NCBI GenBank assembly: GCA_050506795.1
Contig: JBJHCF010000043.1
Span: forward strand, 1-43,917
Reading direction: 5' to 3'
Source of the DNA: Opitutia bacterium
GTDB lineage: Bacteria > Verrucomicrobiota > Verrucomicrobiia > Opitutales > T3Sed10-336
Length of the DNA: 43,917 nt
Part shown: positions 16,052 through 32,763 of the stretch, one piece after another
How positions within the stretch are numbered: position 1 is the stretch's first letter
Layout: the number at the start of each line of letters is the position of its first letter
Made by a program: the position numbers and the translations under genes
Notes under the pieces: generated by a model
What the model saw: only the letters and a program-made list of their open reading frames with translations
The model's database searches: none
Told to the model about the DNA's origin: nothing

Positions 16052-19000
16052 ATGAATAGTGCACGTATGCGGATGGGACGGCTGTGGCCGCTCCTGGGTT
16101 TTATTGTCATCTTCCTGGCCCCTTCGCCGGCGCCGGGGGCCGATGCCATCGGGGCCGACCAACATCGCCTCAAGGTCCTGTTCCTTGGAGACCGGGGAAT
16201 TCACCAGCCGGTGGAACGGTTGCGCGATGTCGCTCCCGCCATGCTCGATCGCGGGATCGAGCTGGTTTACACGGAGGATCCGGACGATATGAACCTGGAG
16301 ACCCTTCGCCGCTACGATGCCTTTCTCGTCTATGCCAATCACTCGCGTATTACCCCTGATCAGGAGCGGGCGCTGCTGGAGTACGTGGAAACCGGCGGCG
16401 GTTTTTTGCCGATTCACTCAGCCACCAACAACTTCACGAATTCCGAGGCCGTCATCCGGATGATGGGCGGCCGATTTCACTGGCATGGCGACGGGATCAT
16501 GACCACCGAAATCGCCGAACCGGACCACCCGTTGATGCAGGGATTCGAGCCGTTCGAAACCTGGGATGAAACGCGGGTGCACCGCGACCACAATGAGGAG
16601 GGGCGGACGGTGTTGAGTTACCACCGCCGCGAGGACGGCGAATTGGAGCCCTGGACGTGGGTGCGGGAACAGGGAGAGGGACGTGTATTCTACACTTCGT
16701 GGGGCCACGATCATCGCACCTGGCGACATCCCGGATTCCACGATCTCCTGGAGCGCGGCATTCGTTGGGCCGCGGGGCAGGATGTTCCACAAGTGCTCGC
16801 CGAACGCCCGCTCCACAGTCCTTTGCGCTATCGCAGTGTCGAAACCTATCCGCCGCCCCCTCCGCGTTTGATCCAGACCGGAGGACAGGCCCCATTTCTG
16901 GAGGAACCTGTCGCGGAGGAATCCTGGGACCTGCAGGCCGAGCCGCTGTCTCCCGAGGAATCGGTGAGCCGGATGATCACTCCGGCGGGATTCCGGGTGG
17001 AGCTTTTCGCCTCCGAGCCCGACGTGGTGAACCCGATCGTTCTGGCGTGGGACGAACAAGGCCGGCTCTGGGTGGCGGAAACGGTGGACTACCCGCACCA
17101 GGTGCGCGGGGGTCAGCCCGGCCGGGACCGGATCAAGATCCTGGAAGACACCACCGGGGACGGCCGGGCCGACAGGATCACGGTGTTTGCCGACGACCTG
17201 AATATTCCAACCGGCATCGCGTTTCATCGCGGCGGGGTGATTGTCAAGCAGGCGCCCTACACCCTGTTTATGAAGGACACCACCGGCGACGGTAAAGCCG
17301 ACCATCGGGAAATCCTGATTGAAGGCTGGTCACAGTGGGACACCCACGGCGGTCCAAACAACATTCGGTACGGGTTGGACAACCACATCTGGGGCGCCGT
17401 CGGCATGGCCGGTTACGAGGGAACCGTCGGCGGCCGGGAGTTTTCTTACACTGCCAATGACATCTTCCGCATGAAACCGGACGGCTCGATGCTGGAGTTT
17501 GTGCGTTCGCTTTCCAATAATGCCTGGGGTATCGGCTTCAGCGAGGAGGGGATTGTTTTCGGCGCCACCGCGAACGCGCAACCGAGCACGTATATGCCCT
17601 TTGCTCAGCGCTATTATGACAAAGTCGACGAGTTGCGGCCGTCGATGACCGAAGGCATTTCCTCCATCGGACCTCGATTCCTGGCCATCACCAACATGCT
17701 GAGGCAGAACAACGTCTATGGCGGCTTCACCGCTGCCGGGGGGCACGCCCTCTATACCGCCCGCGCCTACCCGCCGGCCTTCTGGAATCGCAAGGCGTTG
17801 ATCACCGATATCACCGGCCACCTCACCGGTTCCTTTGTGCTGGAACCGAAGGGATCCAGTTTCGACGCCTTCAACAAGATGAATCTCATCGCCGGTGATG
17901 ATGCCTGGTTCTCGCCCGTCGCGGCCGAGGTGGGACCCGACGGCGCTGTCTGGATCGCGGACCTCTACGAGTACGTTTCCCAGCACCTGGTGCCGGGGCG
18001 TCCGGCGCAAGAGCACGGTCCGGGCAACGCCTACGTGACCGACCTGCGGGACAAGGAACACGGGCGAATCTACCGGGTCGTATGGGAGGATGCGGAGCCT
18101 TTCGAACCGCTGAACCTCGCCGGCGCCGGACCGGAGATCCTGGTCGAAACCTTGCGCCACGACAATCAGCTCTGGCGCATGCACGCCCAGCGTTTGCTGG
18201 TGGAACGGGGCGAGGACGATGTGGTCGAGGACCTGATTGCATTGATCGAAGACCACACCCTGGATGCGATCGGACTCAATGTCGGGGCCATTCACGCCCT
18301 GTGGACTCTCCACGGGCTGGGGCAACTTGATCCGGGACAAAACGCTCGGGCTTCGAGCGCGGCCTACCGTGCATTGGAGCACCCTTCGGCCGGAGTTCGC
18401 CGCAATGCGGTACAGGTGCTTCCGCCGACGGCCGAGTCGGTCGAACGGATTCTGTCCGCCGAACTGTTGGCCGACGAAAGCGCGCAGGTACGCCTGGCGA
18501 CGCTGGTCTCTCTTTCCGATCTTCCTCCTTCGAATCCGGCCGGAGCGGAAATATTCAGGACGCTTAGCGTCGAGGGAAACGTCACCGACCGATGGATACG
18601 CGAGGCCGGCACAATCGCCGCCGCGGTGCATCGTGAGGGATTTCTCGCCGCGGCGAGAGGGTTGGCGCCGGAAAATGGAGCCACTGAGCCGGTCGCACGC
18701 CTGGCGCGAGTGACCGAGATGGTGCGAACGACCGATTACCGGCCGGAGGCCGCGCTCGAAGTGGACGAGGTCGATGGTGTGTTGGTCGTGCGCATCGGCG
18801 TGGTCAATGGCACGATGGAGTTCGATGTCACGGAATTCCAGGTCGGCAGCGGCCAGCAGGTGCGTGTCCATTTTATGAATACCGACCACATGGAGCACAA
18901 TCTTCTCATCGTGCGCCCGGGAACCCTCGAGTCGGTCGGCGCCGCCGCCGACCGGATGAGCATCACCCCGGAGGGGCTGGCGCGTGAATATGTCCCGGAC

Positions 19001-19153
19001 ACCGACGACGTGTTGCACGCCACCCGGATGCTGGCCCCGGGCGAGGAGCAGGTGCTGGAATTCATCGCCCCGGAAGAACCCGGCGACTACCCCTACGTTT
19101 GCACCTTCCCCGGGCACTGGCGGGTTATGAACGGCATTATGAAGGTGGAGTAG
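16052..19153 (+). CDS. ThuA-like + PVC-type beta-propeller (putative dehydrogenase) + HEAT repeats + azurin/auracyanin-type cupredoxin fusion
   Basis: GGGFLPIHSA, GRVFYTSWGHD (ThuA); GFRVELFASEP, WDEQGRLWVAE, DTTGDGRAD, VGPDGAVWIAD; WRMHAQRLL, IHALWTLHGL; HNLLI...CTFPGHWRVM type-1 Cu site. Confidence 0.88.
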   Translation: MNSARMRMGRLWPLLGFIVIFLAPSPAPGADAIGADQHRLKVLFLGDRGIHQPVERLRDVAPAMLDRGIELVYTEDPDDMNLETLRRYDAFLVYANHSRITPDQERALLEYVETGGGFLPIHSATNNFTNSEAVIRMMGGRFHWHGDGIMTTEIAEPDHPLMQGFEPFETWDETRVHRDHNEEGRTVLSYHRREDGELEPWTWVREQGEGRVFYTSWGHDHRTWRHPGFHDLLERGIRWAAGQDVPQVLAERPLHSPLRYRSVETYPPPPPRLIQTGGQAPFLEEPVAEESWDLQAEPLSPEESVSRMITPAGFRVELFASEPDVVNPIVLAWDEQGRLWVAETVDYPHQVRGGQPGRDRIKILEDTTGDGRADRITVFADDLNIPTGIAFHRGGVIVKQAPYTLFMKDTTGDGKADHREILIEGWSQWDTHGGPNNIRYGLDNHIWGAVGMAGYEGTVGGREFSYTANDIFRMKPDGSMLEFVRSLSNNAWGIGFSEEGIVFGATANAQPSTYMPFAQRYYDKVDELRPSMTEGISSIGPRFLAITNMLRQNNVYGGFTAAGGHALYTARAYPPAFWNRKALITDITGHLTGSFVLEPKGSSFDAFNKMNLIAGDDAWFSPVAAEVGPDGAVWIADLYEYVSQHLVPGRPAQEHGPGNAYVTDLRDKEHGRIYRVVWEDAEPFEPLNLAGAGPEILVETLRHDNQLWRMHAQRLLVERGEDDVVEDLIALIEDHTLDAIGLNVGAIHALWTLHGLGQLDPGQNARASSAAYRALEHPSAGVRRNAVQVLPPTAESVERILSAELLADESAQVRLATLVSLSDLPPSNPAGAEIFRTLSVEGNVTDRWIREAGTIAAAVHREGFLAAARGLAPENGATEPVARLARVTEMVRTTDYRPEAALEVDEVDGVLVVRIGVVNGTMEFDVTEFQVGSGQQVRVHFMNTDHMEHNLLIVRPGTLESVGAAADRMSITPEGLAREYVPDTDDVLHATRMLAPGEEQVLEFIAPEEPGDYPYVCTFPGHWRVMNGIMKVE

Positions 19154-19397
19154 CTGGACGGGTCCGTTGGGTTGGGGTGTTTTATCGTTCGGTTGGAAAA
19201 GCAAATAATGGATTCCGATATGAGGGGCGGTGATGGAAGCGATTACAAAAGATGAAATGATCCCGGCACCGGCCTTATTAGGGGCTTTGCGCTTGTTATC
19301 GTTCGGACCTTAGGGGACCTTATCAGGTATCCTGACTTTGCCGTGGTCTCGCGCCGTGAAGTCGGAAACGTCACCGAACACCAGGAGAACAAGATTC

Positions 19398-21581
19398 ATG
19401 AACCGCTTTGAAAAGATCCTGTGCCGTCTGTGCGGGGGGATGGCAATCACTTTGACCGGCCTGACCGGCTGCTCCGAACTGGAATCCGAATCGGCAGGGG
19501 AATATTCGGCTTATTTATTCTCCTACTTCGTCGGAAACGGCCCCGGACAGGAGCAGATTCATTTTGCCGTGAGCGAGGACGGGTTCAACTGGCGGGCCTT
19601 GAACCGGAATCGGCCCATCGTTGATTCCCGTGACATCAGTAATTCGGGCGGGGTCCGTGACCCGCACCTGCTTCGTGGGGAGGATGGGGAAACCTTCTAT
19701 ATGGTGGTCACCGATCTTCACGTTCCCACCATGGGCTGGAGCAATCACGCCATGGTGCTGATGAAGTCGAACGATCTGATTCATTGGGAGTCGTCGGTGG
19801 TGGATATACACGAGGCCTTTCCGGAGGAGTTTGGCGATGTTTACCGGGTCTGGGCGCCGCAGACGATTTACGACCGCGAAGCGGGCAAATACATGGTCTA
19901 TTTTTCCATGAAGTCCCCGAATGAGCCGGACATCATCTATTACGCCTACGCCAATGACGATTTCACGGCTCTCGCCACCACGCCGGAGCAGCTTTATTTC
20001 CCCCCTGCCGAGAGCCAAAATCGCGCTTCGATCGACGGCGATATCGTTTACCATGATGGGAAGTACTACCTCTTCCACAAAGCGGATGACATCGACCCGG
20101 GAATCAAGGTGGCGATTTCGGATCGTTTGACGGAAGGGTATGAACTCCACAGCACGGACCGGGTCGATCTGACGCGCGAAGCGGTCGAGGGTTCGGGGGT
20201 ATTCCGGATGCACGACAGCGATCGGTGGATCCTCATGTACGATGTCTACATCCGGGGAGACTACCAGTTCGCCGAAAGCACCGACCTCCTGAATTTCGAG
20301 TTGGTCGATGACCGGATTTCCATGGATTTCCGGCCACGTCACGGCTCCGTGATGTCGATCACCCGCGACGAGCACGTGCGCCTGTTGGAGGAATGGGGTT
20401 CGTTGGAGCACTACGTCACCGGGGTCGGGGCGGAATACGTCCGCCAACGCAATATCTCCGTCGACGGCGACGAAAGGACGATGCACATCCCGTTGTGGCG
20501 CGGAGCCGATCCGACGCGCTTCGATCCGGAGTTCGAGACGATCTCCGGCCTTTCGGTGTCTCCGCGGGGACCGCAGGATTTCTCCGCGGGACCGGTGACC
20601 TATACCCTGGAGTTCGACGGCGAGTCCGCATTGACCTTCGAGGTCGCCGCCGAGGTCTGGCACAATCCCGTGCTCGACGGTTATTACGCTGATCCCGATA
20701 TCATTTACTCCGAAAAGAACGAACGTTTTTACATCTATCCCACCAGTGACGGCTACCTGGGCTGGTCGGGCACCTATTTCAAGACGTTCTCCTCCGACAA
20801 CCTGGTCGACTGGGTGGAGGAAGGGGTGATACTCGATCTGGAAGAAGACGTCTCCTGGACCAGTCGCAACGCCTGGGCGCCCGCCATGATCGAGCGGCAA
20901 ATCGATGGAGAATATCGCTACTTCTATTATTTCACCGCCGCGCAGCGTGTCGGGGTGGCGGTGTCGGACGAGCCGGACGGACGTTTTGTGGACAGCGGCC
21001 AACCCCTGGTCGACACATTCCCCGAGGGCGTTCAAGGCGGACAGCACATCGATCCGGACGTATTTCGTGACCCGGTGAGCGGTAAGTACTATCTGTATTG
21101 GGGTAACGGGTACATGGCCGGAGCGGAGCTCAACGACGACATGATATCTCTCAAAGAGGACACGATCACGGTCATGACCCCCGACCGCACCTTCCGCGAA
21201 GGGGTTCATGTGCTGTACCGGGAGGGAAAGTATTATTTCCTGTGGTCCGAGGACGACACCCGCAGTGAGAACTACCGCGTGCGCTACGCCACGGCGGACT
21301 CCCCGCTGGGGCCGTTGGAAATCCCCGAGGACAACCTGGTGATCGCCAAGGATCCCTCTATCGGTATCTACGGCACCGGCCATAACTCCGTCATTCAGGT
21401 GCCCGGCCGCGACGAATGGTATATCGTCTACCACCGGTTCACCTACCCGAAAGGGATCGAGATGGGAGGCGATGCCGGGTTTCATCGGGAAACCTGCATC
21501 GACCGGATGGAGTTCGATGAAGACGGCCGGATTCTCCGGGTGCAGCCGACCCATGAAGGCATCGATCCGGTGGAGCTCTGA
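19398..21581 (+). CDS. Lipoprotein with two GH43-type beta-propeller domains
   Basis: AGGAG RBS, lipobox LTGC; domain 1 GGVRDPHL, VWAPQ, SIDGD, EGS, RHG; domain 2 NPVLDGYYADP, AWAPA, IDPDVF, FREG, GTGHNS. Confidence 0.9.
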   Translation: MNRFEKILCRLCGGMAITLTGLTGCSELESESAGEYSAYLFSYFVGNGPGQEQIHFAVSEDGFNWRALNRNRPIVDSRDISNSGGVRDPHLLRGEDGETFYMVVTDLHVPTMGWSNHAMVLMKSNDLIHWESSVVDIHEAFPEEFGDVYRVWAPQTIYDREAGKYMVYFSMKSPNEPDIIYYAYANDDFTALATTPEQLYFPPAESQNRASIDGDIVYHDGKYYLFHKADDIDPGIKVAISDRLTEGYELHSTDRVDLTREAVEGSGVFRMHDSDRWILMYDVYIRGDYQFAESTDLLNFELVDDRISMDFRPRHGSVMSITRDEHVRLLEEWGSLEHYVTGVGAEYVRQRNISVDGDERTMHIPLWRGADPTRFDPEFETISGLSVSPRGPQDFSAGPVTYTLEFDGESALTFEVAAEVWHNPVLDGYYADPDIIYSEKNERFYIYPTSDGYLGWSGTYFKTFSSDNLVDWVEEGVILDLEEDVSWTSRNAWAPAMIERQIDGEYRYFYYFTAAQRVGVAVSDEPDGRFVDSGQPLVDTFPEGVQGGQHIDPDVFRDPVSGKYYLYWGNGYMAGAELNDDMISLKEDTITVMTPDRTFREGVHVLYREGKYYFLWSEDDTRSENYRVRYATADSPLGPLEIPEDNLVIAKDPSIGIYGTGHNSVIQVPGRDEWYIVYHRFTYPKGIEMGGDAGFHRETCIDRMEFDEDGRILRVQPTHEGIDPVEL

Positions 21582-21753
21582 TACCTGCGGTTGGCGCTGA
21601 TCCCTATTAAGCACGGCCACGCTATTTCGCAGCCCGTGAACCATGGGGGGTGCCCGGCCGTCCTGAGGTTACGGACTTGTGCCTCTCCTTGTTCGCCAGA
21701 CCTAACAAACCGTGACTTGCTCGGCTTGACTCGAACCGTAAGAATCCACCTTA

Positions 21754-24201
21754 TTGGTGCTTGTGTCTGCCTATGTTAATGATGAAGGTCTTTCGCGGCT
21801 TCCCTACGGCGAAGCCGATACGCGGGCCAAATTGATTGACCCGGCCCTGCACGGGCGGGGGTGGACGGAGGATCACATACGCCGGGAGGAAACCGCCGGA
21901 GGCATTGAAATCATTGAAGGTCAGGCGCACCGGGCTTCGCGTGGACGGGTCGACTATACACTCAGGCTCCGGATCAACCAAACGTCTCAGCCGCTGGCGG
22001 TCGCCTACATCGAGGCCAAAGCGGAGAACAAACCGCCGACTCAAGGGCTGGAACAGGTCAAGGGTTATCAGGCAGCCGCTGAGCGACTCAACGTCCCCTT
22101 TGTCTACTCGACCAACGGCCACCTGTTCATCGAATACGATCACGTCACTGGCCAGACCAGCAGTCCCAAGCCGCTCTGTGAATTCCCGACGAATGAAGAA
22201 CTCAGACGGGGATTCGAGCATCACAAAGGTTTCGATCTAGAGTCCGTGAGCGCCCGTCCCCTCCTGGTCCCTTATCCGGGCGGTGAGGCCACGCGCCGCT
22301 ATTATCAGGATGCCGCGATTCGGGCGACATTCGAAAAGCTGGCGCGGCCTGGTGAAAACCGTGCATTGCTCTCGCTCGCCACCGGTGCGGGCAAAACCTT
22401 CATCGCGGTTAACCTGCTGAAGCGCATTGCGGATGCGGGACAGTTGAAAAGAGCTCTTTTCGTCTGCGACCGCGACGAGTTGCGCGCTCAGGCGTTGGGA
22501 GCGTTCGCCGGCGTTTTCGGCTCCGATGTCGCCGAAGTTTTCGCCGATGCCGATGGCCGCAACAATGCCCGCAACGCCCGCATTCATGTCGCCACCTACC
22601 AGACTTTGGATGCGCAGAGGAACCAGGGGGCACGGAACTTTTTTTTCAAACATTACCGGGACCGGAACCTTTTCAGTCATATCATTATCGACGAGTGCCA
22701 CCGCTCGGCTTGGGGAGAATGGAAATTCTTCCTGGAACACAACCCGGACGCCGTGCAAATCGGTCTCACCGCCACTCCGCGGGAGCTTAAACAAGCCAAA
22801 CGCAGGCCAGGCGAGTACGGCAGCAGCCCGATGGACGAGGACGAACGGATTCTCCGCGACAACATCAAACACTTCGGCGAACCGGTTTACGAATACACGC
22901 TCGCGCAGGGCATTGAGGATGGCTACCTGGCTCCGCCGGAGATTTTTACTTTCGACCTTTTCCACGACAGCAAGGAAACGCCGGAGCGGGAAGACCGGAT
23001 CAGCAAGGAGGATCTGCGGTCCAAGAAGCTGACCCTCGCCACGACCGGTCAAGAAGCCCCCGCCGAAGTCGTCGAAGATCACTACGGTCCCACCAGGTTG
23101 GACGAGCGTCTGATGCTGCCGGATCGGGTGGAGGCGATGTCCAGGCATCTTTTCGAGCAACTCATCGCTCACGGCGGCGCCCCTGAGCAGAAGACCATTG
23201 TTTTCTGCGCCGGTGACCCCCACGCCGACGCGGTCGCGCAAGCACTGGGCAATTTGTACCAGGATTGGTGTGCGGCCAATGACAGGGACGCCAAAGCATT
23301 CTTTGCCTTCAAGTGCACAGACAAAAGCAACGGCGGCGAACACATCGCTGACCTTCGCGGTTCCGCGTCCTCCCATTTTATCGCCTGCACGGTCGAACTG
23401 CTGACCACGGGAGTGGACGTGCCCTGCCTGCGCAATATAGCATTCATGCAATACCTGCGCTCGCCCATCGTCTTTTATCAGATGCTCGGACGCGGAACCC
23501 GCATCGATCCGGACACGGAGAAGCTCATGTTTCGGGTCTATGATTACACTGAGGCCACCAGCCTCCTTGGACAGGGTTTTCTCACCAAACACCGCAGCGG
23601 GAAAAAGCGACGCAAGCCCGGCCCCCCGCCGAAACCCCCGATCCAGGCGGAGGGTGTGGAAATTGAGATCAAGGACACCGGGCGCTACCTTACGGCGGTG
23701 CTGGATGGCAGCCACCGGCGTATCACCGTTGAGGAGTATCGGGAGCGGGTGGCCGGAAGACTGGTCGAGGCCGCCGCCGATGTTTTGGCTTTCCGCACGA
23801 TCTGGATCACGCCGCAGGAACGCCGCGCCCTGATTGACGCCATCGTGCGCGGCGGCTTCTCGCCCAAGGCCCTGCAAATCGCCGAGGAGGCCGAGGACTG
23901 CGACCTCTTCGACGTGCTCGGCGAGATCGGTTACGGGCTCAACCGCCAGACCCGTGCCAACCGCGTCTTCGCCTTCAGCTACAAGCAACGCGACTGGCTC
24001 CAGGCCATGCCCGCCGACACCGCCGCCACCATACGGGCCATCACCAACCAGTTCGCCCGCGCCGGTACCGAAGCCCTCGAAAGCCAATATATTTTCCAGA
24101 CCGACGAGGTGCGCAAAGCTGGCGGCATCCCCGCGCTCAAGGCGTTTGGTGATCCCACGAGATTGCTCCTCGATACAAAGGAAAGGATATTTGCGGCATG
24201 A
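21754..24201 (+). CDS. hsdR: Type I restriction endonuclease subunit R (EcoAI/EcoEI-like architecture)
   Basis: EADTRAKLIDP, VDY...IEAK nuclease motif, RYYQ, LATGAGKT, DECH, GLTATP, LTTGVD, QMLGRGTR, EcoEI_R_C-like tail. Start codon uncertain. Confidence 0.93.
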   Translation: MVLVSAYVNDEGLSRLPYGEADTRAKLIDPALHGRGWTEDHIRREETAGGIEIIEGQAHRASRGRVDYTLRLRINQTSQPLAVAYIEAKAENKPPTQGLEQVKGYQAAAERLNVPFVYSTNGHLFIEYDHVTGQTSSPKPLCEFPTNEELRRGFEHHKGFDLESVSARPLLVPYPGGEATRRYYQDAAIRATFEKLARPGENRALLSLATGAGKTFIAVNLLKRIADAGQLKRALFVCDRDELRAQALGAFAGVFGSDVAEVFADADGRNNARNARIHVATYQTLDAQRNQGARNFFFKHYRDRNLFSHIIIDECHRSAWGEWKFFLEHNPDAVQIGLTATPRELKQAKRRPGEYGSSPMDEDERILRDNIKHFGEPVYEYTLAQGIEDGYLAPPEIFTFDLFHDSKETPEREDRISKEDLRSKKLTLATTGQEAPAEVVEDHYGPTRLDERLMLPDRVEAMSRHLFEQLIAHGGAPEQKTIVFCAGDPHADAVAQALGNLYQDWCAANDRDAKAFFAFKCTDKSNGGEHIADLRGSASSHFIACTVELLTTGVDVPCLRNIAFMQYLRSPIVFYQMLGRGTRIDPDTEKLMFRVYDYTEATSLLGQGFLTKHRSGKKRRKPGPPPKPPIQAEGVEIEIKDTGRYLTAVLDGSHRRITVEEYRERVAGRLVEAAADVLAFRTIWITPQERRALIDAIVRGGFSPKALQIAEEAEDCDLFDVLGEIGYGLNRQTRANRVFAFSYKQRDWLQAMPADTAATIRAITNQFARAGTEALESQYIFQTDEVRKAGGIPALKAFGDPTRLLLDTKERIFAA

Positions 24202-24800
24202 GGACGGTCAGAATAGGAGATGTTGTTGATAGCGCGCAATCTGGTTTTGCTTCGGGTAAACGGGACGAGAGCGGCGTAATTCAACTTCGCATGAACAATG
24301 TCGATACAACTGGAGTAATTGACCTATCAGAACATATTCGGGTTCCCGTCGACGAGAAACAAATAGATCGTTACTCGCTTAAAGAAAACGACATTCTCTT
24401 CAACAACACTAATAGCACAGAGCTTGTCGGAAAGTCGGCTATCTTCCGTTCGTACGCTGAACCTGTCGTTTTCAGTAATCATTTTACGCGCATTCGTGTA
24501 AATAACGAACAGGCCGACTCCGAGTTTCTTTGCTTCTACATTAACCACCTTTGGCAAAAGAAGGTCTTTATCGAGATCTGCCAACGATGGATTGGACAGA
24601 GTTCCGTGAATTTTAATAAACTAGCGATACTTCCCATAGCCCTCCCCGACCTACACGAGCAGCGCCAGGTCGCGGCGCGGCTGAAGGCGCAACTGGCCGA
24701 AGTCGAAGTGACCCGCAAGAAAGCGGAGGACCAACTCGAAGCCATAAACCGCCTCCCAGCCGCCTACCTGCGGGATGCGTTTGAACCCCCCGCTTCCTGA
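24198..24800 (+). CDS. hsdS: Type I specificity subunit, single target-recognition domain (half HsdS)
   Basis: ATGA overlap with hsdR; LRMNNV, DILFNNTNSTELVGK TRD; one conserved region LPIALPDLHEQ...AYLRDAF; only 200 aa. Confidence 0.9.
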   Translation: MRTVRIGDVVDSAQSGFASGKRDESGVIQLRMNNVDTTGVIDLSEHIRVPVDEKQIDRYSLKENDILFNNTNSTELVGKSAIFRSYAEPVVFSNHFTRIRVNNEQADSEFLCFYINHLWQKKVFIEICQRWIGQSSVNFNKLAILPIALPDLHEQRQVAARLKAQLAEVEVTRKKAEDQLEAINRLPAAYLRDAFEPPAS

Positions 24801-24802
24801 AA

Positions 24803-25624
24803 ATGGCCATGACCTTCCAGACCGGTTGGAGTCCGACGGTCATCCGGCGCGTAGAGGAGTGCCAGGACACCGGCTCTGAAGTGGTGGCTGTCGTCACCAA
24901 TGACGGGAGGGGCTTCGCCAAGTTTCTTGGCAACAAAGAAGGTCCGCACGTATTGGCTTGCGAATTTCTCGGTACCCGGATGGCGCACTTGCTCGGCCTC
25001 CCGACCTTCGATCATGCCTTGATGGATTTTGACGGCGTGCCGGAGATCGTACTTTACAGTGGTAATTGCGCGATGGCAGGATCGACTTGGATGACCCGCC
25101 GTGAAGAGGGCTTGAACTGGAGTGGCAATGGCGACGACCTCAAGTGGATAAGTAACCGCGCCGACGTTGCCAAGCTTGTCGCACTGGACACATGGATTAT
25201 GAACTGCGACCGCTATCGGCCGGAGCCTCGCCGTGTGAACCGGAACAACGTATTCTTTTCCCGGGAAGGTGCGTTACCCGGGCTGTTCCGTCTTGTGGCG
25301 ATGGACCACACGCATGCCTTCACCTGTGGCCGGCCACTTAAGCCGGAGCTTGCCAACATCGGGTTTACGAAAAACGAGATGGTGTTCGGCCTTTTCCCTG
25401 AGTTCGCGGACTTTATCAACCGGGCGGAGATGGTCGCGGCCTGCCAGGCGCTTGCCGCTGCGTCAGACGGGGCGATAGGAGAGGAGGTTGAGCGCATACC
25501 ACGCGAATGGGAGGTGGACAAGGCGACACGGGAGGCATTGACAAACTTTCTCTGCCAGCGGCGCGATTTTCTGGCGACGGAACTTGTCGCTCGTATTTTC
25601 CCCCAATCAGAGCTAAATTTTTAG
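24803..25624 (+). CDS. HipA-like serine/threonine kinase
   Basis: GFAKF lysine strand, LACEFLGTRMAHLLGLP, DTWIMNCDR...NNVFF catalytic loop, VAMDHTHAF, IPREW. Confidence 0.85.
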   Translation: MAMTFQTGWSPTVIRRVEECQDTGSEVVAVVTNDGRGFAKFLGNKEGPHVLACEFLGTRMAHLLGLPTFDHALMDFDGVPEIVLYSGNCAMAGSTWMTRREEGLNWSGNGDDLKWISNRADVAKLVALDTWIMNCDRYRPEPRRVNRNNVFFSREGALPGLFRLVAMDHTHAFTCGRPLKPELANIGFTKNEMVFGLFPEFADFINRAEMVAACQALAAASDGAIGEEVERIPREWEVDKATREALTNFLCQRRDFLATELVARIFPQSELNF

Positions 25625-25634
25625 GTAAAATACC

Positions 25635-26450
25635 ATGAATTCACCCACTACAGGCTACTACAGCGTCATCCAATACTGTCCCGACCGTTCACGGATGGAA
25701 GCGGCCAACATCGGTGTGCTTCTGTTCGTCGAATCGCTGGAATTCCTCGACGTCAGACTCGTCTCGGGCAATGACCGGATCCGGCGCTTTTTCGGGCCGG
25801 ATTACAATCTCGATTTATCAGCGGTTAACACAGCCAAAAAGATGGTCGAGCACCGATTTCAGGTCGAGAGGCCGGAACTGGGCCACCGTGCCGATCTGGA
25901 GTTGTTTCTTCGCCGTTTCGCGAACGAAATTGTGTTCACGCCCCTGCGTCCGGCCCGGGTGGAAAATCCCGCGACGGAACTGGCCCAACTCTTTGGGGAT
26001 CTGGTGACCGCGCGGGTGCGTCGCGACCCCGGCGCTGAAGCTGCGGAATCTTTTCCGGCGATTCGACAGCGTTTCGAGCAACCCGACATCGCCGAGAAGC
26101 TCCAACGTGACTTGACCGTGCGCATCCCCGTACTGGAAGACGAGGTAAATGTGGACTACGGTTTCCAGAATGGCCGCTTCAATCTGATTCAGATCAAGGA
26201 ATTCACCCAGCAGCGGACCGACGCGCTAATGAAGGAGGCGAAGAGTATCGCGGCGGAAGGCCACTTGATCTACAAACATCCCGACCCGCAACGCCATGAG
26301 CAGCAACTGATGGTGGTCGCCAGCTTCACCGAAGCGGTCATGGAGAACCGAGGTCGTATTTCCAGCTTGATGGCCGACCACGACGTGCAGTTTTTCACTG
26401 AAGCCGACGTGGAACGCCTTGCGCAGCTGATTCTCACAACCGCTCACTAA
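25635..26450 (+). CDS. DUF3037 domain protein
   Basis: YSVIQYCPDRSRMEAANIGVLL family signature; C-terminal VDYGFQNG segment; usual position after a HipA-like kinase. Confidence 0.85.
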   Translation: MNSPTTGYYSVIQYCPDRSRMEAANIGVLLFVESLEFLDVRLVSGNDRIRRFFGPDYNLDLSAVNTAKKMVEHRFQVERPELGHRADLELFLRRFANEIVFTPLRPARVENPATELAQLFGDLVTARVRRDPGAEAAESFPAIRQRFEQPDIAEKLQRDLTVRIPVLEDEVNVDYGFQNGRFNLIQIKEFTQQRTDALMKEAKSIAAEGHLIYKHPDPQRHEQQLMVVASFTEAVMENRGRISSLMADHDVQFFTEADVERLAQLILTTAH

Positions 26451-28193
26451 TTGAAATCCTTGGCAACCAAGAAAACGGCCTCAAGAAACAGCAAATCACG
26501 CGCCATTAAAGGCCAGGCGGCGATGGATCGTGTGGTCTGGAGTATCTGCGACGTCATGCGGCGTTCCAACTGCGCGGGCGCACTGCAATACGTCCCTGAA
26601 CTCACCTGGCTGATGTTCCTGCGCATTCTGGATGAGCGCGAAGAGCAGGAGGCGGAGGAAGCCAGGATCGTGGGCGCGGACTTCCGCTTTTCGATGGCGA
26701 AACCCTACCGCTGGCAGGATTGGGCGGCGCCCAACGCCCCGGAGCGTGTGAAGCGGATGGAGCTGTCTTCAGGCAAGTTTTTTGATTTCGTCAATCGTGA
26801 TCTCATTCCCCATCTCAAGCGCCTGAAGGATCGGCCCAATGCGACGCCGCGCCAGAAAGTGATCAGTGAAATCATGTCGGGCGTGGATCGGACCCGCATC
26901 GATACGGAGAGGAATCTCTGCGATGTGCTGGACAAGGTGGACGAAGTCAACTCCAGTGTCATCGACGCTACCCATGTGTTCACACTTTCACAGGTTTACG
27001 AGGGTCTTTTGCTCAAAATGGGCGAAAAGGGCAACGATGGCGGACAATTCTTCACGCCGCGCGAGGTCATCCGCGCCATGGTGGAGGTGCTGAAGCCGCA
27101 GGTGGGGCAGACGGTTTACGATCCCTGCTGTGGCACCGGCGGATTTCTGGCCCAGGCATTTGAATGGATGCGGGGCCAACTGGGTCCGAACGCGACAGGA
27201 GATCAAATCGAGGCATTGAAGCACCGTACATTCTACGGACGGGAAAAGGAGAACCTCATTTACCCGATCGCGCTCGCCAACCTGATTCTTCATGGCATCG
27301 ACGAACCCCATATCTGGCACGGCAATACACTCACGCAGTCGGCCATCTACGCCGGTCTTTTCGAGCATGCTCCCAGCCAGTTCGATGTGATTCTTACGAA
27401 CCCGCCTTTCGGCGGAAAGGAAGGCAAGGACGCGCAGACGCGTTTCGCTTTCAAGAGCAGGGCCACGCAGTTGCTCTTCCTCCAGGATGTCATGGCATCT
27501 CTCAAAACAGGCGGCAGTTGCGGGATCGTGCTGGATGAAGGGGTCTTGTTCCAGACCAACCAGGATGCCTTTGTAAAGACTAAGCGTCGCCTTCTGGACA
27601 CCTGCGACCTGTGGTGTATCGTCAGTCTGCCGCCGGGGCTTTTTACCGCCGCGGGCGCCGGGGTGAAAACCAACCTGCTCTTTTTCAGCAAGGGCCGCCC
27701 TACGAAGCAGATCTGGTATTACGACTTATCGGATGTAAAGGTCGGGAAGAAGAAGCCGTTCACCCGGGCCAGCCTCGAAGGCTTCTTCGAATGTCTGCCC
27801 GACCGCAAGGACAGCGACCGCAGCTGGACCCTTGATATCGCGGCCATTCGTAAACAAGCGCAGGCTGAAGGCGCCAAAATCCGTGCGACCGCCGCGGAAC
27901 CCAAGGACGCCCTCGCGCGATTGCGGGAGCGGCTTACCGAGCTTAAGAAGGCGAAAGTTTCACAGGCAGAGCTGGTCAAAGCCAATGCCGCCATCCGTGA
28001 GAAGGAGAAGGAAATTAGAGCCATCGAGAACCGGGCACAGACGGTTGAGAACGCGGCTTTTGACCTGAAAGCAATAAACCCGAACAATAAGGTTGAAGAG
28101 GATACGCGAACGCCGCGGGAGTTGATCGAGTTCGTTGAAGCGTGCTCGGATCAAATTGCGACTATCATGAAACGCCTCAAACAAATCTCATAA
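26451..28193 (+). CDS. hsdM: Type I N6-adenine DNA methyltransferase subunit M
   Basis: WSICDVMR, LTWLMFLR, YEGLL, GQFFTPR, motif I DPCCGTGGF, motif IV NPPF, VKTNLLFF, FDLKAINPN; TTG directly after the upstream TAA. Confidence 0.95.
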   Translation: MKSLATKKTASRNSKSRAIKGQAAMDRVVWSICDVMRRSNCAGALQYVPELTWLMFLRILDEREEQEAEEARIVGADFRFSMAKPYRWQDWAAPNAPERVKRMELSSGKFFDFVNRDLIPHLKRLKDRPNATPRQKVISEIMSGVDRTRIDTERNLCDVLDKVDEVNSSVIDATHVFTLSQVYEGLLLKMGEKGNDGGQFFTPREVIRAMVEVLKPQVGQTVYDPCCGTGGFLAQAFEWMRGQLGPNATGDQIEALKHRTFYGREKENLIYPIALANLILHGIDEPHIWHGNTLTQSAIYAGLFEHAPSQFDVILTNPPFGGKEGKDAQTRFAFKSRATQLLFLQDVMASLKTGGSCGIVLDEGVLFQTNQDAFVKTKRRLLDTCDLWCIVSLPPGLFTAAGAGVKTNLLFFSKGRPTKQIWYYDLSDVKVGKKKPFTRASLEGFFECLPDRKDSDRSWTLDIAAIRKQAQAEGAKIRATAAEPKDALARLRERLTELKKAKVSQAELVKANAAIREKEKEIRAIENRAQTVENAAFDLKAINPNNKVEEDTRTPRELIEFVEACSDQIATIMKRLKQIS

Positions 28194-28969
28194 TGGACGA
28201 AGAACCGTTTCAACTTCCTTTTCCTCCCATCATCGAGGCAATCGTTGACATCGACTGCGAATTGCCGGCAGGCACGAGTCCGGGGGATTTGGAGTCGGCG
28301 GCCCAAGAGTCATTGTGCAAGACTTACCCGCAGCTTCAGAAGAGGATGTTGCAGCAATTCCAGATTCACAAGCAGGCGGAGAAACCTCCGGAGCCCAGAT
28401 TGAAGGAGGGGCTCGATGCACTCCTGTTTCGCAGCGAGGATGGCAAGCAGCTAACCCAGTTTCGCCGGTCCGGCTACTCTTTCAACCGGCTCGCTCCCTA
28501 CGCGGGCATGGATGCCTGCCTCCCGGAAATCCAACGGACCTGGGAGAATTACCGCACCATCGCCAAACCCCTGCGTATTCGAAAAATCGGCCTCCGTACC
28601 ATCAACCGGATAGGGCTTCCGTTGAATCCTGATGGCGGTTTGGATCTGGGACGCTACCTTTCGACCGGGCCTCAAATCCCAAAAGTTGATGGGCGCGACT
28701 TCACATTCACCGGATTTCTGAATCAGCATCAGATCGTGGACAAACGATCCGGTCAGCAGGCGAATATCGTCCTCGCGACAAAGGAGGTGCGGGACGGAAA
28801 GCTGGTCGTTCTTCTCGACATTGATGCGTATGACCCCCGGCCTCGTGAATCTTTGGAATGGGTTGACGTGTCGGCCGTCGTCGGCTCGCTTCGGGACTTG
28901 AAAAACGACCTTTTTCGCAACATTGTGACCAAAGAATGTATCAATCTCTTCTCAAGCCGGCAATTCTAG
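28193..28969 (+). CDS. TIGR04255 family protein
   Basis: TAATG coupling to hsdM; PPIIEAIVDI, YSFNRLAPY, KIGLRTINRI, LLDIDAY, LRDLKNDLF motifs. Confidence 0.82.
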   Translation: MDEEPFQLPFPPIIEAIVDIDCELPAGTSPGDLESAAQESLCKTYPQLQKRMLQQFQIHKQAEKPPEPRLKEGLDALLFRSEDGKQLTQFRRSGYSFNRLAPYAGMDACLPEIQRTWENYRTIAKPLRIRKIGLRTINRIGLPLNPDGGLDLGRYLSTGPQIPKVDGRDFTFTGFLNQHQIVDKRSGQQANIVLATKEVRDGKLVVLLDIDAYDPRPRESLEWVDVSAVVGSLRDLKNDLFRNIVTKECINLFSSRQF

Positions 28970-29487
28970 CAGCAGGAGCCACAGGCGCTGTTACCTGGGG
29001 CGGTTATGCCGTACCTGGAAGCGGCGTATCCGAAGAAGCCTCATCGATCGTCGATAATTTTAATGTGTTTATCGAGCATCAGCAAAACTCCGAAGCCCTT
29101 TTTGGAGCCAAGGCGCAGCTTATTTCCGCGTTGAGGGAATTGGCGGTCGAATGCTCCGAAGACGATTGGGACGGCTACGGCGCGAATGGTGTCAGTGAGG
29201 CGGTCGCGCTTCGCGCCGAGGCATTCATTCGTGCCTTGCCCGAAGATATCCCGGCTCCCGAGATTTCCGCCGAACCGGACGGGCAGGTTTCTTTCGACTG
29301 GCTGCCTTCCGGGACGAAGACCTTCACCTTGAGTGTGAACGCGGGAAACCGGCTTGCCTATGCATGGATTGACGGGGCCAATCGTGGACACGCCGCGGAG
29401 CTGTTCGATGGAAATGCTCTGCCCGCCCGTGTTCTTGAGGAACTCCTAAGGATTGCAGGTGATGGCGCTACCCTCCGGACTGTCTGA
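28936..29487 (+). CDS. Hypothetical protein with WDGYGA motif
   Basis: Overlaps both neighbours; EDDWDGYGA and PEISAEPDGQVSFDW motifs. Confidence 0.75.
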   Translation: MYQSLLKPAILAAGATGAVTWGGYAVPGSGVSEEASSIVDNFNVFIEHQQNSEALFGAKAQLISALRELAVECSEDDWDGYGANGVSEAVALRAEAFIRALPEDIPAPEISAEPDGQVSFDWLPSGTKTFTLSVNAGNRLAYAWIDGANRGHAAELFDGNALPARVLEELLRIAGDGATLRTV

Positions 29488-29884
29488 GCTTGTTCAGGAC
29501 GAGGAGGCGATTTCACGGTTCCTCACCTCAAGCAGCCATTTCAATGCAACGGTGGTCAAACCACCCGCGTTTATCCCTAATCCGAAGAATGGGCGACTAT
29601 CCGTGGCCCGGCATAGCGCGGAGCCTTTGGAGGAGTCGGAGCGAATGGCGAAAGAAGACTTCAAGCTTCCCAAAGCCATTGGTGTGGCAGTCCTGGAAGC
29701 GAAAGAGTTTCGGAAGCTGGAACTTGATTTTGAAGCGGATGACACGCCTCCCCGGCATGCGGATGTTATCGGATGGACATGGCGGGAAGATGATCCGGAA
29801 TTCGGCAAATCCGAACGGAAGCTGAAAGCTGCGGTCCTTGCCCAAAAAGCGGAACGACTGATCTACCCGAACGCCCGATCCTGA
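29462..29884 (+). CDS. Hypothetical protein, possible ADP-ribosyltransferase-like fold
   Basis: ATG at 29462 overlapping the upstream gene; EAISRF...PAFIP...RLSVAR...RHADVIGW pattern. Fold call is inference. Confidence 0.7.
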   Translation: MALPSGLSELVQDEEAISRFLTSSSHFNATVVKPPAFIPNPKNGRLSVARHSAEPLEESERMAKEDFKLPKAIGVAVLEAKEFRKLELDFEADDTPPRHADVIGWTWREDDPEFGKSERKLKAAVLAQKAERLIYPNARS

Positions 29885-30064
29885 AAATAACGCTCCGTTT
29901 CCGCGGACCACGATGATAGACTTGCTATCAAAACACCAAGTCTGTCCGGATTGCTCATCAAGTCGGAAGGTGGCGGGATGCGACCGGGAAATGAGGAAAT
30001 GAGGTTTATGCCTAACATATTCCTCGCCAACGTCAAAGGGACTGGGTAGACTCCGGTTTTTGCT

Positions 30065-31941: not shown

Positions 31942-32763
31942 CTAGCGGTGAGTTAAGGATACGGGATTGTCGAGCAGGAGCATATTCAGGGTTTCCTCCA
32001 TCGACTCGGCCCAGAGCCGGTAGCCGGTTTCGGAGAGGTGCAGTTCGTCCGGCATGATGGAATTGGGAATGGTACCGTCATCGGCCAGGAAGCGGTGCCC
32101 GATATCGAGGAAAAAAACGAATTCTCCATCCGCGAGGCGGGGCAGGACCTGATTGACCTGAGCGGTCAGACCGCGCCGGTGGTGGAAATCAGCTTTATGG
32201 GGAAAGATTCCGAGTAACAGGATCTTGGTTTCGGGAAGTTTTTCGCGCAGCTTCGCCACCACTGCGGTCACGCCCTGCAGAATTTCCGTCGAGGAGTTTC
32301 GGCCGGAGTTATTCACGCCAATCAACACGACTGCCACACGGGGATGGAGGCCGTCGATGTTTCCGTTGTCCAATCGCCAGAGGACGTTCTGGGTGCGGTC
32401 GCCACCGAGACCCAGGTTCAGGGCTCTTCCTTCGTAGTACTCCTCCCAGACTTTCCGTCCCGTGATTTCCCAGTCCTGCGTGATCGAGTCCCCGAGAAAG
32501 AGGATTTCAAGGTCACCCTGATGCTGTTGAACGCGCTCGTTCAACATAAGGAATCGATTGTGGCGTGAGCTTCCCTCTTCCGGCGGAACCGCCACAAACG
32601 TTGGCTCTGCCGGTGGCGGAGTGGACCCCTTCTGCAGCATGGCCCCGGTGAGTAAGCCAAAGGTGATCGCTGATACGATCAGGGCAATGACGAACGCCCG
32701 AGATGTGGAAAATGTGAGTAATTTGGCCAAGTCTTTAACTGATTTTTGTTCAATTTGATGCAT
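31942..32763 (-). CDS. SGNH/GDSL hydrolase (PAF-acetylhydrolase-like esterase), membrane anchored
   Basis: FLGDSIT, NLGLGGDRTQNVLWRL, IGVNN, MPDELHLS; N-terminal TM helix. Confidence 0.92.
   Translation of the reverse strand: MHQIEQKSVKDLAKLLTFSTSRAFVIALIVSAITFGLLTGAMLQKGSTPPPAEPTFVAVPPEEGSSRHNRFLMLNERVQQHQGDLEILFLGDSITQDWEITGRKVWEEYYEGRALNLGLGGDRTQNVLWRLDNGNIDGLHPRVAVVLIGVNNSGRNSSTEILQGVTAVVAKLREKLPETKILLLGIFPHKADFHHRRGLTAQVNQVLPRLADGEFVFFLDIGHRFLADDGTIPNSIMPDELHLSETGYRLWAESMEETLNMLLLDNPVSLTHR

Follow-up and report, generated by a model that had tools for sequence, protein, structure and literature searches.

The window analyzed here, a 43,917-nucleotide stretch from an Opitutia bacterium (contig JBJHCF010000043.1), carries at positions 21754–29884 an eight-gene operon that we read as a small defence island built from three layers, each mobile on its own and all probably carried by a single transcript: a type I restriction-modification (R-M) enzyme (hsdR, hsdS and hsdM), a HipA-like kinase (K) with its DUF3037 partner (D), and a cassette formed by a TIGR04255 protein (T), a middle gene (W) and a protein with an ADP-ribosyltransferase (ART) fold (A). 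Gene content, folds, the mobility of the parts and the covariation of W with T are observed, and we are confident that the island is modular. The full account, which includes a chaperone-like proposal for T-W-A, appears reasonably probable, as does the identification of T-W-A as a toxin-antitoxin (TA)-like defence cassette, and we suggest only tentatively that T works as a chaperone-like sensor. Only T-W-A looks new, the stacking pattern and the kinase-DUF3037 system (HipAD) being already known.

All eight open reading frames (ORFs) lie on the + strand at the coordinates of an earlier reading of this DNA (hereafter the original prediction), with the junctions that it listed (−4, +2, +10, 0, −1, −34 and −26 nt in gene order; the last, between W and A, is −26 nt with the ATG at 29462 and −35 nt with a TTG at 29453). 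Judged from this spacing, the eight genes probably share a single transcript; promoter and terminator scans of the operon gave shuffle-level counts (4 vs. 3.5 ± 2.0 and 8 vs. 10.3 ± 3.8, respectively). Family scans upheld the labels HsdR, HsdS, HipA_2, DUF3037, HsdM and TIGR04255, and the last ORF has an ART-type fold; W and A had no Pfam or NCBIfam match in these scans. Among PADLOC models, K and D match PDC-M66A and PDC-M66B, while W and A match PDC-M32A and PDC-M32B weakly. The observation of a type I R-M operon carrying two additional toxin-type modules was thus right, and the layered reading built on it half right: the eight genes do not amount to a single undescribed system, since the kinase-DUF3037 pair is already validated and such embedding is published, and the claim of undescribed content survives for the last three genes alone. 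The check proposed for the complete eight-gene order returned it in none of 80 hsdM loci (the top-ranking 80 among 571 confirmed metagenomic relatives of hsdM), none of 80 ART loci (those retained from 142 that a scan with the alignment of A confirmed) and none of the viral-contig T loci described below; many of the hsdM and ART loci lie on short contigs. L-numbers below denote loci from these scans for relatives.

The distribution of the last three genes (T, 28193–28969; W, 28936–29487; A, 29462–29884) is that of an independently mobile cassette, as judged from their relatives. T-W-A is intact in 69 of the 80 ART loci, with W-A lacking T in seven and A alone, through contig-end cuts, in four, and by their titles the records come from Verrucomicrobia, Proteobacteria, Acidobacteria, Chloroflexi, Nitrospirae and other groups. 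The cassette has R-M or DNA methyltransferase genes (type I, IIG-like, Mod-like, GmrSD) as neighbours in at least 16 of the 80 loci, a lower bound that considers 77 of the 122 upstream ORFs together with 31 selected neighbours; in L031 it lies between hsdM and hsdS, and in L045 and L076 it follows the hsdM-hsdS pair. Many copies adjoin housekeeping genes, e.g., ATP synthase epsilon, gyrB and dnaK, and a UvrD-type helicase follows the cassette in 9/80 loci. At ~700 aa, such a helicase comes after T-W-A in L023, L027, L029, L032, L035, L037, L039, L047, L083 and L247, in several of them with a Mod-like N6/N4 methyltransferase before it, making up a larger recurring locus. Viral contigs yielded eight T loci (seven distinct cassettes), all with W, and with A found by hidden Markov model in five and by eye in three; one T-W-A-like cassette, present in two records, is directly followed by AbiTii (L253:1-2727). 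A scan of viral contigs for T with a PIN neighbour found none, and a plasmid search gave no match for A and a single record for T.

The closest repeat of the operon order, D-hsdM-T-W(-A), occurs in L186 and L188. In a FastTree phylogeny of 83 sequences, the window T groups with homologues from non-R-M contexts (L009, L011, L010; support 0.98–0.99), far from the T of L186/L188, which we read as independent capture. Within the phylum, TIGR04255 was found in 12 of 401 genomes, the source genome included; five of the 13 other genes precede W-A, three a small gene plus PIN, one a small gene plus HEPN, and the remaining four one or two genes to which no effector type is assigned (L258 was left out of the PIN comparison, being broken upstream). 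As a side observation, TIGR04255 is followed in L116:8987-10450, L131:6806-7822, L095:503-1487 and L133:7052-7768 by a protein with a common short Cys-Asp motif and no convincing Pfam match, possibly a further effector type, and L133 adjoins an NgoMIV-type R-M pair. One record (P0068) is a T-W fusion.

The predicted ART fold of A (140 aa, model pLDDT 93.5) is related to PDC-M32B, though the match is weak (E 8e-5, with 19 of 50 family members matching). A Foldseek search gave no match at E ≤ 0.001, with Tpt1/KptA on top, and a wide fold search again placed Tpt1/KptA first (Z 7.1, root-mean-square deviation (rmsd) 3.7, 93 residues aligned), ahead of AvrPphF (Z 6.2) and Scabin (Z 5.3), most of the matches listed being ART-fold proteins. 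ARTs of the R-S-E clade carry an Arg on strand 1, a Ser on strand 2 and a catalytic Glu. In the A family the near-invariant residues are R19 (78/81), S47 (81/81) and H99 (80/81), of which the first two lie on the first two long strands of the model and H99 at the strand-5 position; the loop position 94 is Glu or Asp in 66/81. On this model, A is probably a toxin using nicotinamide adenine dinucleotide (NAD).

The putative antitoxin W combines an N-terminal arm of ~60 aa with a domain like the C-terminus of PDC-M32A, of which only model positions 269–336 are covered; 30 of 59 W-family members match PDC-M32A, all weakly (best E 2e-5). Its extra segment is N-terminal, and its C-terminus stops just after the conserved domain. 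Across the relatives, the profile match of W begins no later than position 19 in 65 of the 69 loci with T adjacent, and no earlier than position 26 in all eight T-less loci, a partly circular test as discussed below: by sequence, the arm is present where T is adjacent and missing where it is not, i.e., it covaries with T. A pair of near-identical contigs (98.6%) differs in the same manner, L186 (1988-2771) having lost T and the W arm in frame relative to L188 (1848-2890) while keeping the W core and A, a difference that may be an assembly artefact. The T-less W of L077 has an HTH_17 N-terminus, whereas the T-adjacent middle gene of L116 keeps a helix-turn-helix (HTH). In the T-less PIN pair L257, the antitoxin shares the common C-terminal motif and has a different, shorter N-terminus, ribbon-helix-helix (RHH)-like by eye only and with no Pfam match. 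A short, arm-less W homologue also follows a DUF1828 gene in genome G008 (L003:201-1824), with no T or A called. A C-terminal ClpXP degron on W was considered and rejected: an AA end occurs in 11/77 W (vs. 0/70 T and 0/80 A), but is a likely by-product because the DNA for this tail also encodes, in another frame, the conserved beginning of A; the W of the window, moreover, is not AA-ended.

T is a confident TIGR04255 member (97 bits against a cut-off of 30; E 1e-27) modeled as a curved beta-sheet (pLDDT 95), and its proposed role towards the pair downstream is that of a sensor, chaperone or regulator. Its fold matches, of middling strength, are guanido kinases and McsB (Z 8.0–8.9; the best guanido kinase at Z 8.9, rmsd 4.2, 190 aligned) and the TATA-binding protein (TBP, Z 7.0), and E15, G94, Y103, R135 and D209 are invariant. 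No SecB Pfam match was found in 63 T members, nor was SecB among the matches listed in whole-T fold searches; a match of the T profile to PDB 9hnh was dismissed, this entry being cited in a designed-solenoid paper. Atlas searches with T and with W returned same-family clusters only (8005 clusters for W at E ≤ 0.001), and W had no useful sequence match among solved structures. A full-text search for TIGR04255 and its aliases, most subscription papers lying outside its scope, found no paper that mentions them, nor do the supplement and text passages available from PMC13069673. The DefensePredictor supplements, as far as available, include TIGR04255 proteins among predicted defence genes and neighbours of defence genes, and two files of tested systems lack them.

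The restriction and methylation layer is, from its predicted motifs, a type I R-M enzyme. HsdR (21754–24201, 815 aa, EcoAI-like, with its start at 21754, 21757 or 21763) combines Pfam ResIII and EcoEI_R_C (PADLOC REase_I 4.5e-84; 423 bits against NF046051, under the cut-off of 550) and has the nuclease and DEAD-box translocase motifs (positions 86, 211, 313 and 576). HsdM (26451–28193, possibly starting at ATG 26523) is an N6-adenine methyltransferase with Pfam N6_Mtase and HsdM_N, an S-adenosylmethionine-binding motif at 224 and NPPF at 317. HsdS (24198–24800) is half-size, a feature absent from the original prediction: its 200 aa hold a single Methylase_S domain, i.e., one target-recognition domain (TRD) and one complete conserved helix rather than two TRDs in one chain. 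No second hsdS half lies nearby, the sole other match in the genome being on contig C5. The hsdS DNA, with a GC content of 0.50 vs. 0.59 for the genome, aligns with each of the two conserved repeats in the 402-aa HsdS of L136, the two matches joining at a single point (24729), which fits the loss of a second TRD by recombination. Half-size S proteins (202–236 aa) recur, being found in 6 of the 38 relatives whose S starts inside the locus. Such proteins, with one TRD and one conserved helix, are known from AhdI and from truncated EcoR124I and EcoAI S; the HsdS here is likewise built, and by analogy should homodimerize and read a symmetric bipartite site, the kind of recognition site that its half size predicts.

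The R-S-x-x-M gene order, which the original prediction had called unusual, turned out to be ordinary. Of the 80 hsdM loci, 46 have hsdS upstream of hsdM and none has it downstream; where both genes were called, 29 of 32 loci show the order R-S-M, with varying cargo, and 27 of the 46 have more than 400 bp of cargo between S and M, so that R-S-(cargo)-M is the norm of this HsdM subfamily. The closest R-M relative, L136 (86% HsdM identity), is without K and T-W-A; at L136:3327-5927 an AlbA/RecG-like ATPase sits between hsdS and an orphan DUF3037 gene, in the place of the kinase.

The pair occupying this slot in the window is, by its predicted domains, the validated anti-phage system HipAD/DS-6/PDC-M66. 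K (24803–25624) scores above the HipA_2 cut-off (28.1 bits vs. 27) and matches PDC-M66A weakly (E 0.003), with no useful sequence match among solved structures, and E54, N134, D136, R137, N149, D168 and H169 are invariant across nine aligned kinases. D (25635–26450) matches DUF3037 at 9–124 (E 7e-14) and PDC-M66B over 8–265 (E 1e-12). Parts of PMC13092281 describe DS-6, renamed HipAD, as a HipA-like kinase plus a DUF3037 protein (DS-6B, 275 aa, DUF3037 at 7–125) whose defence needs kinase activity, and parts of PMC12548924 report that the same pair, PDC-M66, defends without a neighbouring retron and that deletion of the DUF3037 gene is toxic. The C-terminal DUF1829 had no Pfam match in D at E 0.1, the call in the available part of the paper itself being an HHpred probability of 0.78. 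PDC-M66B occurs in 12 of 401 phylum genomes (source genome included) in varied contexts. Eight of the 80 hsdM loci, or ~4 independent populations, have D immediately before hsdM: K and D together in L137/L139/L140 (one population) and L180, and D in L136, L181, L186 and L188, the last three cut by the contig start. Pfam placed DUF3037 in one of the 80 ART loci: L045 (1635-7018) has hsdM, a 259-aa hsdS, T-W-A and then DUF3037, with no kinase called, i.e., the same parts in another order.

The island spans ~8.5 kb (21582–30064) between a GH43 gene and a 542-aa ORF. In the same-genus genome G001 (67% complete), both flanks lie on one contig (87–89% identity) ~100 bp apart and the island is missing, so these 8.5 kb were either gained here or lost in G001. 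A DNA search found the operon in 0 of 40 related genomes. No integrase or terminal repeat was found at the island, and no terminal or target-site repeats stood out in a repeat search; other contigs of the genome carry further type I hsdR and hsdM homologues. The flanks (16052–21581 and 31942–32763) hold genes of sugar-metabolism type rather than defence, including a two-domain GH43 and a GDSL esterase, as well as a large PVC-type dehydrogenase-like ORF, judged by eye.

Taken together, these data suggest the following organization. The R-M enzyme would form the first layer, a homodimer of the half-size HsdS reading a symmetric bipartite site; in the second, D would keep K inactive until infection, as shown for homologues and inferred here. 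The third would be a TA-like cassette in which W neutralizes A, an ART-fold NAD-dependent toxin, and T acts on the N-terminal arm of W, most likely binding and stabilizing it like a toxin-antitoxin-chaperone (TAC) chaperone. A phage product occupying T, or the loss of T synthesis, would then free A and arrest the cell. Toxicity of A, an antitoxin role of W, binding between T and W and a phage trigger are thereby each proposed, and the cassette suggests a TAC-like class whose third partner is not SecB. The gap between hsdS and hsdM and the 3′ end would be the cargo slots of the R-M operon, with the layers co-expressed and not wired to one another. More broadly, TIGR04255 might be the third partner of an undescribed tripartite TA defence class, parallel to TAC and unrelated to SecB, in which it would bind an N-terminal arm borne by otherwise unrelated antitoxins and thereby subject effectors of several kinds (ART-fold, PIN, HEPN and others) to a single phage-sensing control, with an R-S-H ART-fold toxin as the effector here; this generalization is speculative, and we regard it with some doubt.

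Whether the layers are truly unwired bears on the guard model of the original prediction, in which HipAD and/or T-W-A would monitor the R-M complex, physically or genetically, and fire when a phage anti-restriction protein blocks it, like PrrC with EcoprrI. The tight coupling of all eight genes would fit this, as would D before hsdM in ~4 independent populations, the renewed D-hsdM-T-W(-A) order and the three loci with T-W-A within or after hsdM-hsdS, but homologues of HipAD provide defence in the absence of R-M, T-W-A mostly occurs away from R-M genes, and the closest R-M relative does without both K and T-W-A. PrrC, by comparison, is nearly always embedded in type I R-M, a restriction that does not hold for these modules since most T-W-A and HipAD copies are elsewhere, and we thus consider a guard role quite improbable. 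A rather unlikely alternative, though less so, is that T is a DNA- or ligand-binding regulator or an enzyme (a TBP-like saddle replacing the DNA-binding domain of the antitoxin, or a guanido-kinase-like nucleotide-binding enzyme modifying W) and W-A an ordinary type II pair. Such a role is what the best folds of T and its invariant charged strand residues (E15, R135, D209) would predict, and T-less antitoxins can indeed have a DNA-binding domain of their own (HTH_17 in L077; in L257 by eye only), yet identity to the guanido kinase and TBP folds is 6–10% with rmsd above 4, the T-adjacent middle gene of L116 keeps its HTH, and DNA binding does not account for an N-terminal arm that covaries with T.

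The many copies beside ATP synthase epsilon, gyrB and dnaK raise another explanation, namely that T-W-A, as a TA cassette serving selfish addiction or a stress response, or with A binding NAD but not toxic, has no part in defence against phages and uses R-M operons as an insertion hotspot. PDC-M32 is only a candidate system and A is without the canonical catalytic Glu, which would suit this view; the repeated insertion beside R-M and Mod-like/UvrD loci, the copies on viral contigs, one of them followed by AbiTii, and the high defence-prediction scores of other TIGR04255 proteins make it, in our opinion, unlikely. Several further points weigh against the three-layer account itself. Its ART assignment relies on Z scores (≤7.1) in the middling range of the tool and on a motif with His as third residue, where R-S-E ARTs have Glu; nearly all members behind the W profile are T-adjacent, which introduces some circularity into the arm test, and the loci lack independence; in many places T-W-A stands without a defence neighbour, and the R-M neighbour count (at least 16 loci) has no background control. 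Also, K-D upstream of hsdM in several relatives indicates that HipAD has, to some extent, been linked to this R-M clade over the long term.

The three-layer reading matters mostly for its last module. T-W-A is small, spread across phyla and easily cloned, gives the TIGR04255 family a testable role, and comes with a built-in control in the natural T-less, arm-less variants (L186 vs. L188). If T does sense phage via an arm on swappable antitoxins, this would represent a second, non-SecB route to chaperone-gated immunity as well as a new ART subfamily.

Compared with known systems, the operon taken whole adds another example of type I R-M with defence cargo, an embedding pattern already published (10.1101/2024.01.29.577857): in the available part of that guilt-by-embedding study, cargo lies between hsd genes as here and both modules match its PDC models; there is no difference in kind, only two cassettes stacked and a half-size HsdS. 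The second layer shares with HipAD a HipA-like kinase followed by a 271–275 aa protein with N-terminal DUF3037, and intact catalytic motifs, but lies between hsdS and hsdM, is divergent in sequence, and has no DUF1829 detected by Pfam in D. EcoprrI resembles the present operon in that a type I R-M system includes a toxin gene. PrrC is an anticodon nuclease with an ABC-ATPase, found almost only in R-M, and PADLOC found no match to it in the operon here.

T-W-A resembles CmdTAC in being made of three genes, in having a candidate toxin with an ART fold and an extra arm on the middle protein, and in a third partner that recurs with different toxin types. In CmdTAC, CmdC is SecB-like, the triad of CmdT is H-Y-[EDQ] (PMC11618068, as far as available), and the chaperone-addiction domain (ChAD) is C-terminal, whereas T (258 aa) has no SecB match listed, A has the conserved set R19, S47 and H99 (R-S-H) in place of an H-Y-[E,D,Q] triad, and the arm of W is N-terminal, with no C-terminal chaperone-addiction tail of the kind found in TAC systems (CmdTAC, HigBAC). 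As parts of 10.1101/2024.02.24.581848 describe, removing the addiction element of a TAC system renders the pair chaperone-independent, and the covariation of T and arm parallels this, with the arm at the opposite end.

The nearest relative is PDC-M32, a PADLOC candidate system with one passing mention in print (in the available part of PMC12429752), of which T-W-A is, by its sequence matches, a new form. The gene order agrees, with W corresponding to the C-terminal domain of PDC-M32A and A to PDC-M32B, all of these matches being weak. True PDC-M32 loci have a 382–386 aa protein ending in a W-like domain and then an A-like gene, and that of L088 is flanked by hsdM on one side and a 222-aa hsdS-like ORF on the other. 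The link rests on family-wide PADLOC matches because pairwise profile scores between PDC-M32 and the W and A families are very low (probability 4–6%). PDC-M32A (375 aa) has 270 N-terminal aa, whereas W stands alone here, preceded by the TIGR04255 gene, and a family search found no full-length PDC-M32A in the source genome (G000). We rejected PDC-M32A as a T-W fusion: its N-terminal part is without similarity to T, and none of 63 T members has a PADLOC match. The presence of W-A in both PDC-M32 and T-W-A suggests instead that the W-A pair travels with different N-terminal partners.

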